Shown here: positions 2,775 through 63,067 of the stretch, piece after piece
Position numbering within the stretch: position 1 is the first letter of the stretch
Layout of the letters: every line of letters starts with the position of its first letter
Origin: a plasmid
Sequence record: CP089609.1
Direction: 5' to 3' (one strand)
DNA: 64,000 nucleotides
Translations under genes and position numbers: made by a program
The notes under the pieces: model-generated
Databases searched by the model: none
What the model saw: the letters and a program-made list of their open reading frames with translations, nothing else
What the model was told of the DNA's origin: nothing

Positions 2775-2794
2775 ATACACCTACTTAGGTGTAT
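2775..2794. promoter_or_regulatory. palindromic operator candidate ATACACC-N6-GGTGTAT
   Basis: ATACACCtacttaGGTGTAT about 55 bp upstream of the 2850 gene. Confidence 0.5.
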
Positions 2795-2849
2795 CCTTCA
2801 GGCCAGTGCGAGACGAGAAGCGGCTGAACCGAAGGAGGAGTTTGCACCG

Positions 2850-3206
2850 ATGAGCAACCAGCCATCGTCGCCCTGGCTCCCCTTCGAGTCTGGATCAACG
2901 CTGGGTCAACGCGGCTCGGATGACGGGGTGATCATCGCCGACGAGGAATACTCCGATCGCGCGCGGATCACCCTGGAACGCGACTGCCAGGCCTACGGCC
3001 AGGCCACGATCCCGTTCAGCATCACGTGCGGAATCTATGGGCTGATGATGCACACCCGCTTTTTCAGTGACGAGCCGCGGGCACGCGAGCAGTTCGATGA
3101 GATGAAGACCGCGATCGCCACACTCGTCGACCAACAGCCCGATTCCGAAGACGACCTACCAGATGGGCTTGACGTGTACGACGAGTTCGTCCGGCAGTAC
3201 CCATAA
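2850..3206 (+). CDS. hypothetical acidic protein
   Basis: 118-aa ORF with GAAGGAGGAG RBS 8 bp upstream; palindromic operator about 60 bp upstream. Confidence 0.55.
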   Translation: MSNQPSSPWLPFESGSTLGQRGSDDGVIIADEEYSDRARITLERDCQAYGQATIPFSITCGIYGLMMHTRFFSDEPRAREQFDEMKTAIATLVDQQPDSEDDLPDGLDVYDEFVRQYP

Positions 3207-3217
3207 CTCCTCGCTGG

Positions 3218-3487
3218 TTGTCACACCCCGAGAGGAAGCTAGTGCAGAACACGGGCAGGAGGCTCCAGATGACTGACTTCTCTACGGTGAGGATGTGGGG
3301 CCCCCTGGCCTACCTCACCCCACCTGTGCTGCTCATCCACATGCCGCTGGCCACGATTGTTCTTCTCGTGGCCGCATACGTGCTCCGCAGCCGCAACCAG
3401 CGTCACAACCTGCCGGCGCAACAGAGGTTGGCGCTTCTGCTGCTCGGTGGGTGCACCGCCGCCTTCATCGTCGTGGCCGGTATGTAG
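3218..3487 (+). CDS. small membrane protein
   Basis: hydrophobic TM stretches (LLIHMPLATIVLLVAAYVL; LLLLGGCTAAFIVVAG). Confidence 0.4.
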   Translation: MSHPERKLVQNTGRRLQMTDFSTVRMWGPLAYLTPPVLLIHMPLATIVLLVAAYVLRSRNQRHNLPAQQRLALLLLGGCTAAFIVVAGM

Positions 3488-3802
3488 ATGTTCCCTGGCC
3501 CCATGCGGCCATTCCGCCTCACCACGCCGGGCCAGGAAACCGTGCCTGATGTCGCATCCACTGCGGATTGGATTGTCCACCTCATCGCCCCACTCGGCCT
3601 CATGCTCGCTGCACTCGGCTTCTATGCGATCACCGCCTACGGCCTCGGTCGCGAGCTCGCCACCAGTCACTACCACACATTGCTGGCGGCGCGCCGACTC
3701 ACCATCGGGCTGATCGGACTCCCGCGTCTACCTGAACCGCCGCCGACCACGAAAGATCAGCCGGATACGTCGCGGACCACCCGTGATGCTCGTCCGGACT
3801 AG
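3488..3802 (+). CDS. membrane protein
   Basis: 104-aa ORF with two predicted TM helices, abuts upstream gene. Confidence 0.4.
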   Translation: MFPGPMRPFRLTTPGQETVPDVASTADWIVHLIAPLGLMLAALGFYAITAYGLGRELATSHYHTLLAARRLTIGLIGLPRLPEPPPTTKDQPDTSRTTRDARPD

Positions 3803-3824
3803 GTAACGAGGCAGGAAGGGACCA

Positions 3825-4193
3825 ATGGCTATGGCAGCAACCAAGCACGAAGAAGCGGTTGATCGAGTACTTCAAATACTGTTCCCTGTACTGGGAATCG
3901 CCGAGGCGTCCGACGAGGCGGCATATCTTCGCCAGCTCCTCCTCGATCACCCCGAGATCGACACTGTGCCGAAGCTTCAGACGTACCTGGCTGACACCGG
4001 CCCCAATCACAGACCGGCCGAGGCCGGGACCGTCGCACGCGCCCTCACAGCCGATGCGCACGCTCGCTCAGACATCGGCATCCCTGTACACGAGAGCCTA
4101 TTTCGCGAACTGAATGATCAGCGGGCACTCACGCCTGAGGAATCGGCTGCACGGCTGAAGTACTCGTTTCACCCATTGCGACCACCAACATAG
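3825..4193 (+). CDS. hypothetical protein
   Basis: 122-aa ORF, AGGAAGGGACC RBS. Confidence 0.45.
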   Translation: MAMAATKHEEAVDRVLQILFPVLGIAEASDEAAYLRQLLLDHPEIDTVPKLQTYLADTGPNHRPAEAGTVARALTADAHARSDIGIPVHESLFRELNDQRALTPEESAARLKYSFHPLRPPT

Positions 4194-4219
4194 CCCCAGG
4201 CAAGGAGCATTCGCACACC

Positions 4220-4552
4220 ATGGCAGCACCCACAACGATCGAGAAGACCGACGAGCGGTTCGTCATCGACGGGCACCCGGACTTTCCTGCCCGCATGGTC
4301 ACCTTCGACGAACTGCACGACACGCTCTCAGGCGACATCCAGGCCAGACACTACGGGTACGCCGACACCGACGATATGGCCGTCTACCGGTACGTGCCGG
4401 GCCGTCCGCCGCAGCTCGAACCACTCACTCTGACCTGTGTACAGCGATCGGAATTCGACGAAGACGACTGGGCTTACCCGGTATGGGAACTGACCGGTCC
4501 AGATGGCACTGCCTGGGCCAGAATGCGCATTCGAATCGACGGCCGGGTCTGA
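4220..4552 (+). CDS. hypothetical protein
   Basis: 110-aa ORF with CAAGGAGC RBS. Confidence 0.5.
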   Translation: MAAPTTIEKTDERFVIDGHPDFPARMVTFDELHDTLSGDIQARHYGYADTDDMAVYRYVPGRPPQLEPLTLTCVQRSEFDEDDWAYPVWELTGPDGTAWARMRIRIDGRV

Positions 4553-60906: not shown

Positions 60907-61201
60907 TGCTCGACTGCCTCTCCATTGCGGAACATGATCGGGCCGGTTGAGAATGCAGCTGCGAGTTCCTCGCTGGTCATCTCGCCGAGCGGCTTGCCGT
61001 CGGTGCGCTCGGCGATTGCGTCGGAGAGTTTGTCGAGTCCCGATTCACGCTTAGTTGCTGCTTTAGTTGTCATGCTTGTGTCCTCCATGTGTAGATGGTT
61101 TCGCGTTGCGGTACTGTGCCGCAAGGTAGTTCGGCTTGCCATCCGCGCCATTGCGGAGCGAGCCGCGCGGACCCTCTGGTGCTTGTGAGCGTCCATGTCG
61201 A

Positions 61202-61570
61202 TTAGTTTCGCGTTCTTTCGTCGTGGGTATCAGAGCGATGGCCGCCGCCCCCAGGGTTCCCGTGCCACAGTGAGCCGTCCGGCTGCGTCTCGACATACGG
61301 CATATCGGGGTGGATGAGGTCACCGCAGCCGCAGACGACGTTGGGTAGGTATTGGGGTGCCGGATCGGGGTCTACAACTTCCCATGTAATCCGCGCGCGG
61401 ATGAGTTCCGGCGTGTCAGGGCGGCCCAGTTCGTCGTATCGTCTGCTCAGGTGTGTGTGCATCGATCGTGCCTGGTTTTCGTCCCCGTACTCGTGACACG
61501 CGGTCGGCGTTCCTGTTTCGCCCCAGCGGACTCCCCATAGGGTGCCGCCGTGGTATTTGTCGCCGATCAT
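61202..61570 (-). CDS. hypothetical protein (122 aa)
   Basis: ATG with AGGAACCGAACA RBS; ATGA overlap with the upstream gene. Confidence 0.45.
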   Translation of the reverse strand: MIGDKYHGGTLWGVRWGETGTPTACHEYGDENQARSMHTHLSRRYDELGRPDTPELIRARITWEVVDPDPAPQYLPNVVCGCGDLIHPDMPYVETQPDGSLWHGNPGGGGHRSDTHDERTRN

Positions 61571-61800
61571 TGTTCGGTTCCTGCCTTGGAGTGCCGTGTT
61601 GCATCGGGTGGTGCTTGTCCTGGGATGTCGTACTCGTCTGGGTGGTTGGCGGCGAACAGATCCGGTTCGTTGGCGTATGCCATCGCTTCTAGTTCGGTGT
61701 AGCCCAGGTCGCGTGCAGCTTGGTAGGTCGCTTTGTAGGTGGCGGCGGCGTTCTGTGGATCTTGGGGTGGTGTGTGAATCTGATTGTGGTTTGGGGTCAT
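61567..61800 (-). CDS. hypothetical protein (77 aa)
   Basis: MTPNHNQIHTPPQDP...; frame distinct from the long spurious ORF. Confidence 0.35.
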   Translation of the reverse strand: MTPNHNQIHTPPQDPQNAAATYKATYQAARDLGYTELEAMAYANEPDLFAANHPDEYDIPGQAPPDATRHSKAGTEQ

Positions 61801-62218
61801 TGGGGTGTTCTTTCGTTTCAGGGGCCGGGGCGGGTGTCGGGGCGGCGGGCGGCGATCTTGGTGATGGCGTGTTGGGCTCGGGTCCGGGGGTGGGGATGTC
61901 GCGTGTGCCGTGGGTGGCGGCTGCGGTTCCTGATTCGAATAGGGGCACCGTGGTGGTGTAGTCGAAGGCTGCGCGGAGGTCGCCTGTGGTGAGTTGGCCG
62001 TTGGATGCGGCGAGGCGGAGTGCGAGGAGGTCTGGGCCGTGGCAGCCGACCCAGCCGGCGCATAGGCGTGCTTGGTGATCGTCTGCGCTGGTTTGGTGGC
62101 AGAGGAACAGGCTGGGTGGTTGGAATGGGGTGTCGACGTCGTAGGCGGTGAGCTTGGCGTACTCGGTGGCGGCCCAGATTCCGCTCGGACGTCGCGGCGG
62201 TATGGGCAGGAGCCGCAT
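61801..62218 (-). CDS. hypothetical protein; C-terminus unresolved because the frame stays open into downstream genes
   Basis: MRLLPIPPRRPSGIWAATEYAKLTAYDVD... gives way to a Pro-rich stretch. Confidence 0.3.
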
Positions 62219-62261
62219 GGCTGTCGTGCCGGGCCGCGGACCTCGGTTCGTCGAGCGTGGG

Positions 62262-62753
62262 TCATGGTGTGATCGTCCTTGGCAGGGGTGACAGGCCAGG
62301 GGTGGCGGGTGTCTGGGAGGTCTCGGCGGTGCGGTGCATTTCGTGGATGATGTGTTCGGGTGCGAGGCGTCCGCCGTTGGCGGCTCGGCGGCGGTTGCGT
62401 TCGAGGCATTCGGCCAGCGGGGTGTCGATGGTGATGATCTGGTAGGTGAGGTTGTGGCGGTGGGCGAGATCTGTCCAGACCGCCAAGTGTTCGGGTTCGA
62501 GGTTGGTGTCGTCGATGACGATGGATTTGCCGTTGAGTAGGGCGGTTTCGGCGAGGCTGATCTCGTGCGTGGTGACGATGTCTTCCTGTTCTTGGGTCAG
62601 TTCGCTGTATTGACCGAACAGGTGATACCGGAGTGTGTCGCGGTTGATGATTTCCCGGTTGCCGGGGTCGGCTTGGCGCCACGTGTTCGCCCAGGTGGTC
62701 TTACCGGCCGCTGGTAAGCCTGTGAGAATGAGAACCGTTGGGTGGTCGGTCAT
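62262..62753 (-). CDS. P-loop NTPase (AAA_33/polynucleotide-kinase/zeta-toxin-like kinase fold)
   Basis: Walker A ILTGLPAAGKTTWA, Walker B IVIDDTN; CAGGAGCATC RBS. Confidence 0.65.
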   Translation of the reverse strand: MTDHPTVLILTGLPAAGKTTWANTWRQADPGNREIINRDTLRYHLFGQYSELTQEQEDIVTTHEISLAETALLNGKSIVIDDTNLEPEHLAVWTDLAHRHNLTYQIITIDTPLAECLERNRRRAANGGRLAPEHIIHEMHRTAETSQTPATPGLSPLPRTITP

Positions 62754-63037
62754 TCCGATGCTCCTGATGCTGCGCCGGTGAGGTTGGTGAGTTCTGGGCG
62801 GAGATTGTCTCGGGGCTCCCATTCCTGGGTTTGGGGGTTGTATTGGCCGATGGTGATGATGGGTTCTCCGGCCTCGTTGAGGTAGACGAAGATCGATCCG
62901 TAGAGCTGGCCGTCGGTGCTCAGGTAGACGTTGCCGCTATATTCCGATTCGCCGTATTCGTCAGGTTTGCCGAGGTCCACGGTCCACGGTGTTCCTCCGG
63001 CGTCGAGGGTGAGTGTGGATTTGGGGTGGCCGCTCAT
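62750..63037 (-). CDS. hypothetical protein
   Basis: abuts the kinase gene; palindromic operator about 12 bp upstream of its ATG. Confidence 0.45.
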   Translation of the reverse strand: MSGHPKSTLTLDAGGTPWTVDLGKPDEYGESEYSGNVYLSTDGQLYGSIFVYLNEAGEPIITIGQYNPQTQEWEPRDNLRPELTNLTGAASGASE

Positions 63038-63047
63038 AACAATTACT

Positions 63048-63067
63048 ATACACCTTAGTAGGTGTAT
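63048..63067. promoter_or_regulatory. palindromic operator candidate
   Basis: ATACACCttagtaGGTGTAT in the divergent 63037/63189 intergenic region. Confidence 0.5.

Follow-up and report, generated by a model that had tools for sequence, protein, structure and literature searches.

A 20-bp palindrome of the form ATACACC-N6-GGTGTAT (ATACACCNNNNNNGGTGTAT) recurs at promoters across a 64,000-nucleotide stretch of plasmid DNA (sequence record CP089609.1), referred to here at its full length as the window, with positions counted from its first letter. The copies of this palindrome probably serve as operators of a single DNA-binding protein, dimeric and sequence-specific, which is most likely a plasmid-encoded helix-turn-helix (HTH) repressor of the XRE type. 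They lie within what appear to be promoters of the sigma-A type. The original prediction that a single dimeric DNA-binding protein acts at many promoters of this DNA is supported by the fusion of the palindrome to the -10 hexamer, by its persistence as conserved islands at orthologous promoters and by the presence of sites outside the window.

Recurrence of the palindrome and its place in probable promoters

Exact copies of the palindrome were found at six positions in the window, namely, 2775, 21340, 29297, 40745, 51329 and 63048, as compared to a mean of 0.00 in 100 dinucleotide-preserving shuffles of the same DNA. When up to two mismatches were allowed, eight sites were obtained, as compared to the 0.07 expected from the shuffles. 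The two additional copies, at 9928 and 9998, contain one mismatch each (ATACGCC in one arm) and are found 70 bp apart in a single divergent intergenic region. In a scan considering all palindromes with 6-bp arms and gaps of 0-12, this was the only recurring palindrome of the window. The earlier claim of a palindrome recurring far above a shuffled background was thus borne out by the six exact and two one-mismatch copies, and all seven of the copies then listed were recovered, the eighth, at 9998, having been missed. The arms, previously described as invariant, vary between A and G at position 5, giving the consensus ATACRCC-N6-GGYGTAT. Pooling of 15 sites from all of the plasmids considered extends this consensus to T-ATACRCC-N6-GGYGTAT-AGT. 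A literature search on the two arms in mycobacteria returned only primers.

The symmetry of the palindrome is exact in six of the eight window sites. Their spacers form three pairs, and because the members of two of these pairs also have 21-36 bp of upstream flank in common, they are taken to be duplicated promoter modules. The three spacer classes originally proposed are thus recognizable as pairs, except that the spacer at 9928, when read in gene orientation (gagtaa), stands apart from those at 2775 and 63048 (tactta and tactaa). BLAST comparison of flank against flank (3 kb each) revealed two matches, one of 41 bp between 21340 and 29297 and one of 57 bp (77%), inverted, between 2775 and 63048. 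The flanks are unrelated apart from these two short pairs, and the possibility that the sites belong to a large repeated element was rejected.

All eight sites lie wholly outside gene calls, as do only 18.5% of 20-mers (P ~7e-6, counting seven independent loci), and the distance from palindrome to nearest start codon ranges from 10 to 104 nt. These values agree with the intergenic location, 10-110 bp before gene starts, that had been assigned to the sites. With every site read in the direction of the start codon closest to it, a TANNNT hexamer is formed by the outer TAT of the 3' arm and the three bases that follow in seven of the eight window sites, and in none of them when read in the opposite orientation. 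The T found 3 nt past the arm in those seven sites corresponds to P = 5e-5, given a T frequency of 18%, and was present in 12 of the 15 sites from all plasmids (P = 4e-7). The hexamers take the form TATNNT, most commonly TATAGT. TANNNT is the one element that defines mycobacterial sigma-A promoters. No conserved -35-like hexamer was detected upstream of the 15 pooled sites.

At ATG 10028, GTG 51360 and ATG 63037, the start codon is found 7, 8 and 7 nt past the hexamer, respectively, and the mRNAs of these three genes are for this reason probably leaderless. The other five window sites precede leaders of 50-101 nt. Relative to the predicted transcription start, the palindrome would span approximately -29 to -10. 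The sign of regulation is inferred from position only: since the site extends over both the -10 and the spacer region, repression is proposed, in that a bound dimer occupying this DNA would exclude RNA polymerase. Loss or inactivation of such a repressor would turn on at least ten transcription units together, including the three probably leaderless operons, as well as operons next to FtsK-like genes of the DNA-transfer type. The eight window sites, each given as read toward its gene, are as follows:

Site 1, 2775..2797, + strand: ATACACC-tactta-GGTGTAT followed by cct, giving the -10 hexamer TATCCT; 55 nt before ATG 2850, a start with a GGAGG ribosome-binding site; the 36 bp upstream are similar, in gene orientation, to those upstream of the site at 63048
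Site 2, 9925..9947, - strand: ATACACC-gagtaa-GGCGTAT followed by agt, giving the -10 hexamer TATAGT; reads leftward into gene 9467-9874/9922
Site 3, 9998..10020, + strand: ATACGCC-gccgtg-GGTGTAT followed by tgt, giving the -10 hexamer TATTGT; the product of the gene at ATG 10028 is a 99-amino-acid membrane protein
Site 4, 21340..21359, - strand: ATACACC-tgatgc-GGTGTAT; 12 nt past the stop codon of a frameshifted EspR-like gene and 71 nt before gene 20978-21268
Site 5, 29294..29316, - strand: ATACACC-ggatgc-GGTGTAT followed by att, giving the -10 hexamer TATATT; 12 nt past the stop codon of an XRE gene, termed B, and 104 nt before gene 28707-29192, after which comes a MazE-like/MazF pair
Site 6, 40745..40767, + strand: ATACACC-cgttcc-GGTGTAT followed by ggt, giving the -10 hexamer TATGGT; 93 nt before open reading frame 40858-41121, in a divergent region opposite the XRE-171 gene
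Site 7, 51329..51351, + strand: ATACACC-cgttca-GGTGTAT followed by tgt, giving the -10 hexamer TATTGT; heads a ~5-kb operon that starts at GTG 51360 and has as its last gene that encoding XRE-94, termed D
Site 8, 63045..63067, - strand: ATACACC-tactaa-GGTGTAT followed by agt, giving the -10 hexamer TATAGT; heads an operon encoding a 95-amino-acid protein and an AAA_33/zeta-like kinase

The start of the gene read from site 2 is probably GTG 9874, because homologues of the 9467 gene are mostly 135 amino acids long. As for site 4, the locus may be decaying, because its upstream neighbor is the frameshifted EspR-like gene. This XRE gene (21372-21697, - strand) contains a frameshift near position 21560. 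From its last two codons through the stop codon to 12 nt beyond, its sequence agrees with that of the unrelated XRE gene at 29329, within the 41-bp match that includes the palindrome.

Sites in related plasmids and the nature of the host element

Two further exact copies are found in the 10 kb of this plasmid that adjoin the window on its left, at window coordinates -2905 and -25, and the TATAGT of the latter points at the first gene of the window. The earlier proposal that the regulon exceeds the 48-kb segment bracketed by insertion sequences is upheld by such further sites outside the window. To consider other genomes, a 17-base version of the motif was used to scan species-representative genomes. 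Among the matches listed, most were proteobacterial integron sites, while three mycobacterial contigs, namely, two M. hubeiense scaffolds and one Mycobacterium metagenome-assembled genome (MAG), each presented two sites per 8 kb.

The palindrome is kept as a conserved island at orthologous promoters in an ERR1540663 contig, in M. hubeiense and in the Mycobacterium MAG. In L260, a related plasmid contig with backbone proteins 65-99% identical to those of window region 47-64 kb, sites orthologous to those at 51329 and 63048 were identified, together with a third (L260:17224) that precedes a 306-amino-acid gene and an FtsK-like gene. The site at 51329, its spacing and its GTG are conserved in L260:5640 and in L263:2129. 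Comparison of 63048 with L260:15792 revealed that both flanks have diverged, with CTATACACC..GGTGTATAGT, the 7-nt gap and the ATG remaining intact. Likewise, when a two-gene module was compared between M. hubeiense scaffold24 (L168) and the MAG (L241), both sites appeared as islands of identity in upstream DNA that could not otherwise be aligned. M. hubeiense scaffold55 (L270) contains four sites. At L270:14735, before a homologue of the 10028 gene (69% protein identity), ATACGCC and the 7 nt to the ATG are kept, and the spacer is changed. Next to this site is what remains of a copy of site 9928 (ACTAT-CCCCGCAATAGGTGCATA), now decayed, at the very place from which the divergent gene is absent. 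At orthologous loci, both arms are thus conserved while the spacer drifts.

At L270:13272-13338, two back-to-back sites are found 47 bp apart, each with a TATAGT pointing outward. One of the two heads a RadC-AbiEi-AbiEii operon, such that the regulon of the M. hubeiense plasmid would include a toxin-antitoxin system of the abortive-infection type. In a further observation, the divergent intergenic region to the left of the site at 51329 (window positions 51196-51328) is nearly invariant in the window, L260 and L263, and contains GTTACGGTACTGGCCCGCTGTGACGGTATCCAGGGGATTCGG and ACGGTA repeats. Because this region is more conserved than the adjoining genes, it may hold a second functional element, for example, a leftward promoter or an origin-like site.

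The gene at 9467-9922 is also present in other conjugative-type plasmids (L134-L138) that lack the motif, and the motif therefore appears to be specific to a plasmid lineage and not to this gene. No site was detected in ~160 kb of related plasmids and gene neighborhoods, comprising L134, L135 and L137, which carry homologues of the 9467 gene, L261, which carries an XRE-94 homologue, L269, an M. intracellulare plasmid, and pTY66_01. No motif-bearing plasmid was obtained from PLSDB when B, D and two backbone proteins were used as queries. Viral contigs containing the motif presented single chance matches or corresponded to unrelated phages of ~50% G+C with TTACAT spacers.

The window belongs to a Mycolicibacterium fortuitum plasmid of ~220 kb and has itself a G+C content of 63%. 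The same DNA is present in about 20 public assemblies, and the 9467-9922 product has 100% identity to an M. fortuitum plasmid protein annotated as hypothetical. Exact-protein look-ups with three window proteins returned no record. Pfam analysis of essentially all window products revealed toxin-antitoxin pairs, methyltransferases, a P450/TetR cargo block, Lsr2, Sir2, IS607-like and IS605-like elements and four XRE-type HTH genes, with no other product being recognizable, such that nearly all genes of the window are without a known function. FtsK/SpoIIIE-like genes lie just outside both ends of the window. Pfam detected no phage structural genes over the whole window, for which no match to phage DNA beyond 68 bp was obtained. 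A prophage or an integrative and conjugative element island, to whose operator sets the palindromes had originally been compared, is contradicted by the plasmid origin of the source record, the lack of phage structural genes and the flanking FtsK-like genes; on the first two of these grounds, and for want of any longer match to phage DNA, prophage master-repressor operators were also rejected. The element is instead a large, probably self-transmissible plasmid.

Other features of the window were also noted. Two near-identical IS607-like elements, each with a serine recombinase and a TnpB-like gene, are found in inverted orientation at 6968-9310 (+ strand) and 57456-59796 (- strand), with ~48 kb between them, and could invert this 48-kb segment. 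A related IS607-like copy presents a 90% match in an M. abscessus plasmid. The two copies in the window have no bearing on the motif. The predicted protein encoded at 26142-26615 (+ strand) contains three copies of a DVVLKVED tandem peptide repeat near its N-terminus.

Alternative explanations and candidate regulators

The lack of a -35-like hexamer upstream of any of the 15 sites would be in keeping with the palindrome binding an activator or a MerR-like promoter-remodeling factor that replaces the -35, in which case the regulon would be switched on by the protein. The dyad center, at about -19.5, is likewise not far from that of MerR-type operators. Mycobacterial sigma-A promoters, however, are generally without a conserved -35, as seen in published transcription-start surveys, and so offer none to be replaced. 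Moreover, the operator overlaps the -10 itself, unlike MerR-type sites, Pfam detected no MerR-family gene in the window outside the IS607 transposase, and the nearest precedents, HigA1 and HigA3, are repressors. As such, activation is considered unlikely. It could also be imagined that a promoter module was spread by duplication and kept as a good -10 region, with no dedicated binding protein, as the two site pairs with a common upstream flank might suggest. Yet conservation is as strong in the distal arm, 13-20 nt upstream of the -10, as in the proximal arm, the symmetry is exact in most window sites even though the other flanks are unrelated, and it is the arms and not the spacer that are conserved at orthologous loci, rendering this explanation quite improbable.

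The arm-spacer-arm geometry, together with the pairing of the spacers, would also fit core sites of a tyrosine-type recombinase, with 7-bp inverted arms and a 6-bp crossover spacer, placed at the boundaries of exchangeable modules. Indeed, an identical 8-6-8 palindrome, TATACACC-N6-GGTGTATA, is found by GTTRRRY upstream of integron integrase genes in at least 36 proteobacterial contigs. In the window, however, Pfam detected no tyrosine recombinase or Phage_integrase domain, no GTTRRRY is found beside the mycobacterial sites, and inter-plasmid homology continues across the sites with no breaks in synteny there. Neither the strand-specific TATNNT nor the fixed spacing to the start codon would be expected of recombination sites, and the spacers differ between orthologous sites. 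A role in recombination is accordingly held to be very improbable. Least probable of all is that the palindrome acts as an RNA hairpin in intergenic termination, attenuation or processing. The 20-mers do fold at -7.3 to -9.2 kcal/mol, and two of them are found 12 nt past the stop codon of an upstream gene, but no T-run follows any of the sites, the stem comprises only 7 bp with three G-C pairs, and the A/G variant on either arm would yield a G-U pair on one strand and a C-A mismatch on the other. Furthermore, most sites are in divergent or 5' regions, no Rfam family was matched, and, if the -10 assignment is right, the palindrome would lie outside the downstream mRNA. Resemblance to a SigF-type or CRP-type motif was also considered and was rejected, given that the half-sites and orientation do not fit.

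Several points weigh against the preferred reading of the palindromes as operators of a dimeric repressor within sigma-A-type promoters. The proposed -10 hexamers, leaderless mRNAs and repression are deduced from sequence, and the gene calls used here were self-made, on the basis of codon usage. The site at 21340 is the only one in the window with no TANNNT in either orientation. No family matches were obtained for most target genes, with NCBIfam being empty for ten site-adjacent genes. Finally, neither B nor D has a canonical site in its own promoter. In the promoter of B, the half-site differs symmetrically, with A replacing C, while the conserved promoter of D contains no ATACACC. L261, encoding a homologue 80% identical to D, presents no site in 17.5 kb, and none of the seven B homologues found is attributed to M. 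hubeiense. The two candidates and their associated sequences are as follows:

Candidate D (XRE-94), 55896..56180, + strand: last gene of the operon headed by site 7
XRE-94 upstream region, window 55780-55895, L260:9876-10000, L263:6536-6660, L270 upstream of 10001 and L261:7071-7275: conserved
Candidate B, 29329..29619, - strand: orphan HigA2/HigA3-like XRE HTH protein of 90-96 amino acids (Pfam HTH_3/HTH_37)
Overlapping pair of near-cognate palindromes, 29612..29645, - strand: TACAAC-aactgt-ATTGTA and TACAAC-aaatat-GTTGTA, at the promoter and start codon of B

By co-occurrence, D would fit best, being the only HTH protein common to the window, L260, L263 and M. hubeiense scaffold55, all of which bear the motif. 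Members of the XRE-94 family are few, forming only seven clusters in a set of 5.8 billion sequences, and a metagenome scan with XRE-94 returned one irrelevant match. The region upstream of the XRE-94 gene is conserved nearly base for base in five homologue loci and contains TGCGC/GCGCA repeats and TTGCGCTATATGGTGAAT; this region is probably the promoter and operator of XRE-94 itself.

By operator resemblance, it is B that would fit best. B matches HigA3 (PDB 6LTY) with E = 2e-7, and its recognition helix reads TQARVSAIE, as compared to SQARVSKLE in HigA3. When the motif was relaxed to TACAMC-N6-GKTGTA with up to one mismatch, only two extra sites were found in the 64 kb, both at B, where 0.11 matches in total were expected. 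These palindromes at 29612-29645 are presumed to be autoregulatory operators of B. No B homologue was detected in the examined parts of the other motif-bearing plasmids.

The candidates at 29329 and 55896 named in the original prediction gain some support, by operator resemblance and by co-occurrence, respectively. B and D can each be proposed only tentatively, and with equal weight, while the chances are about even that the regulator is some other protein, possibly encoded outside the window. Other candidates put forward at that time fared less well. The XRE-like gene at 21372 is frameshifted, while the three paralogous small HTH proteins have neither a site nor a common palindrome upstream. 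The latter (18370-18714, 27559-27885 and 33519-33896, all + strand) share 37-46% identity and present a weak MarR-like winged-helix C-terminus. XRE-171 (39992) likewise gained no support as regulator; a different palindrome, GCCCTAAGTTAGGGC, is found near its own start. This palindrome lies at about 40601-40615 in the 350-bp gap upstream of the XRE-171 gene (40508-40744), which also contains a long hairpin resembling a terminator (about 40674-40724), with ATTTTCTTTCT after it on the + strand, although no gene was called on that strand there. Viral relatives of the XRE proteins at 39992 and 29329 were limited to weak N-terminal matches.

It is conceivable, if rather doubtful, that an orphan antitoxin-type XRE protein, be it the HigA3-like protein encoded at 29329 or XRE-94 encoded at 55896, was co-opted as the master switch of a large mycobacterial plasmid of the conjugative type. 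By way of operators incorporated into the -10 elements, such a protein would silence at least ten promoters, among them those of leaderless operons and of the operons adjoining the FtsK-like transfer genes, and these promoters would fire jointly upon entry into a repressor-free recipient, as in zygotic induction.

Significance and comparison with known systems

The presence of a 20-bp operator at ten or more promoters would define a co-regulated gene set and predict transcription starts, three of them leaderless, in large mycobacterial plasmids, where gene control is almost unstudied. At the same time, the 20-mer provides a simple handle toward the regulator and the inducing signal, and the operator-in-the-minus-10 design could be used as a compact repressible promoter for mycobacterial genetics. 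No new principle is indicated.

Operators of two M. tuberculosis antitoxins are the closest in form. One dimer of HigA1 (Rv1956) binds per ATATAGG-N6-CCTATAT at the higB P2 promoter (PMC6377645). Like the plasmid sites, this mycobacterial operator is a 7-6-7 palindrome that begins with ATA and has a 3' arm that runs into a TANNNT-type hexamer (CCTATATTCT, TATATT). Its inner half-site is, however, TAGG and not CACC, and autoregulation by HigA1 concerns a single toxin-antitoxin-chaperone operon, whereas the plasmid palindrome is found at ten or more operons unrelated to one another. No higB is found among the genes next to the plasmid sites. HigA3 (Rv3183) binds TATAACC-N4-GGTTATA at the -10 box (PMC7340258; PDB 6LTZ). 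Here, the half-site form ATA..ACC and the overlap with the -10 are shared, and the window protein B is the closest relative, with a near-identical recognition helix. By contrast, the HigA3 spacer is 4 nt long rather than 6 nt, and a single operon is autoregulated. B further differs from HigA3 in having no upstream higB and in having TACAAC rather than TACACC half-sites in its own promoter. A HigA-type autoregulatory operator was rejected as an explanation for the plasmid sites, as the eight canonical sites are not found before any toxin-antitoxin pair with an XRE member.

In terms of distribution, the plasmid sites recall the KorA and KorB regulons of broad-host-range plasmids (IncP/RK2), in which many copies of one short palindrome at backbone promoters, with the KorA operators overlapping the -10, provide coordinated repression of plasmid functions. 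In both cases, one palindrome is spread over plasmid promoters, although the phylum and the sequences involved differ. Pfam detected no homologue of KorA or of KorB/ParB among the window proteins. The stoperators bound by gp71 of mycobacteriophage L5 are asymmetric 13-bp sites found mostly within transcribed regions and acting in one orientation. Common to the two systems is the dispersal of a single repressor site, in many copies, across a mobile element of mycobacteria, whereas the plasmid sites are symmetric and found at promoters, and the window contains no phage genes.

The proteobacterial palindrome considered above was encountered in beta- and gamma-proteobacterial contigs (L140-L258, e.g., L158:6627, L154:2088 and L162:1064), where it comes after a third direct copy, TTATACACC, and is followed by nnnnAC-GTTRRRY. 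Among the matches listed, it is mostly found within ~125 bp upstream of the integron integrase gene and would seem to belong to the attI site in one class of chromosomal integrons. While the 8-6-8 palindrome itself is the same, the mycobacterial sites are without integrase, GTTRRRY or cassette structure, and the likeness is most simply explained by the search itself, in which all genomes were probed with this same pattern.

Taken together, palindromic operator sets by which one repressor controls many promoters of a mobile element are already well known, examples being the RK2 KorA/KorB regulons and phage repressors, as is, for mycobacterial HigA, a 7-6-7 operator that overlaps the -10. The new elements are the motif itself, its proposed control of ten or more functionally uncharacterized operons in a lineage of mycobacterial plasmids, and an operator that is regularly fused to the -10, along with probably leaderless starts.

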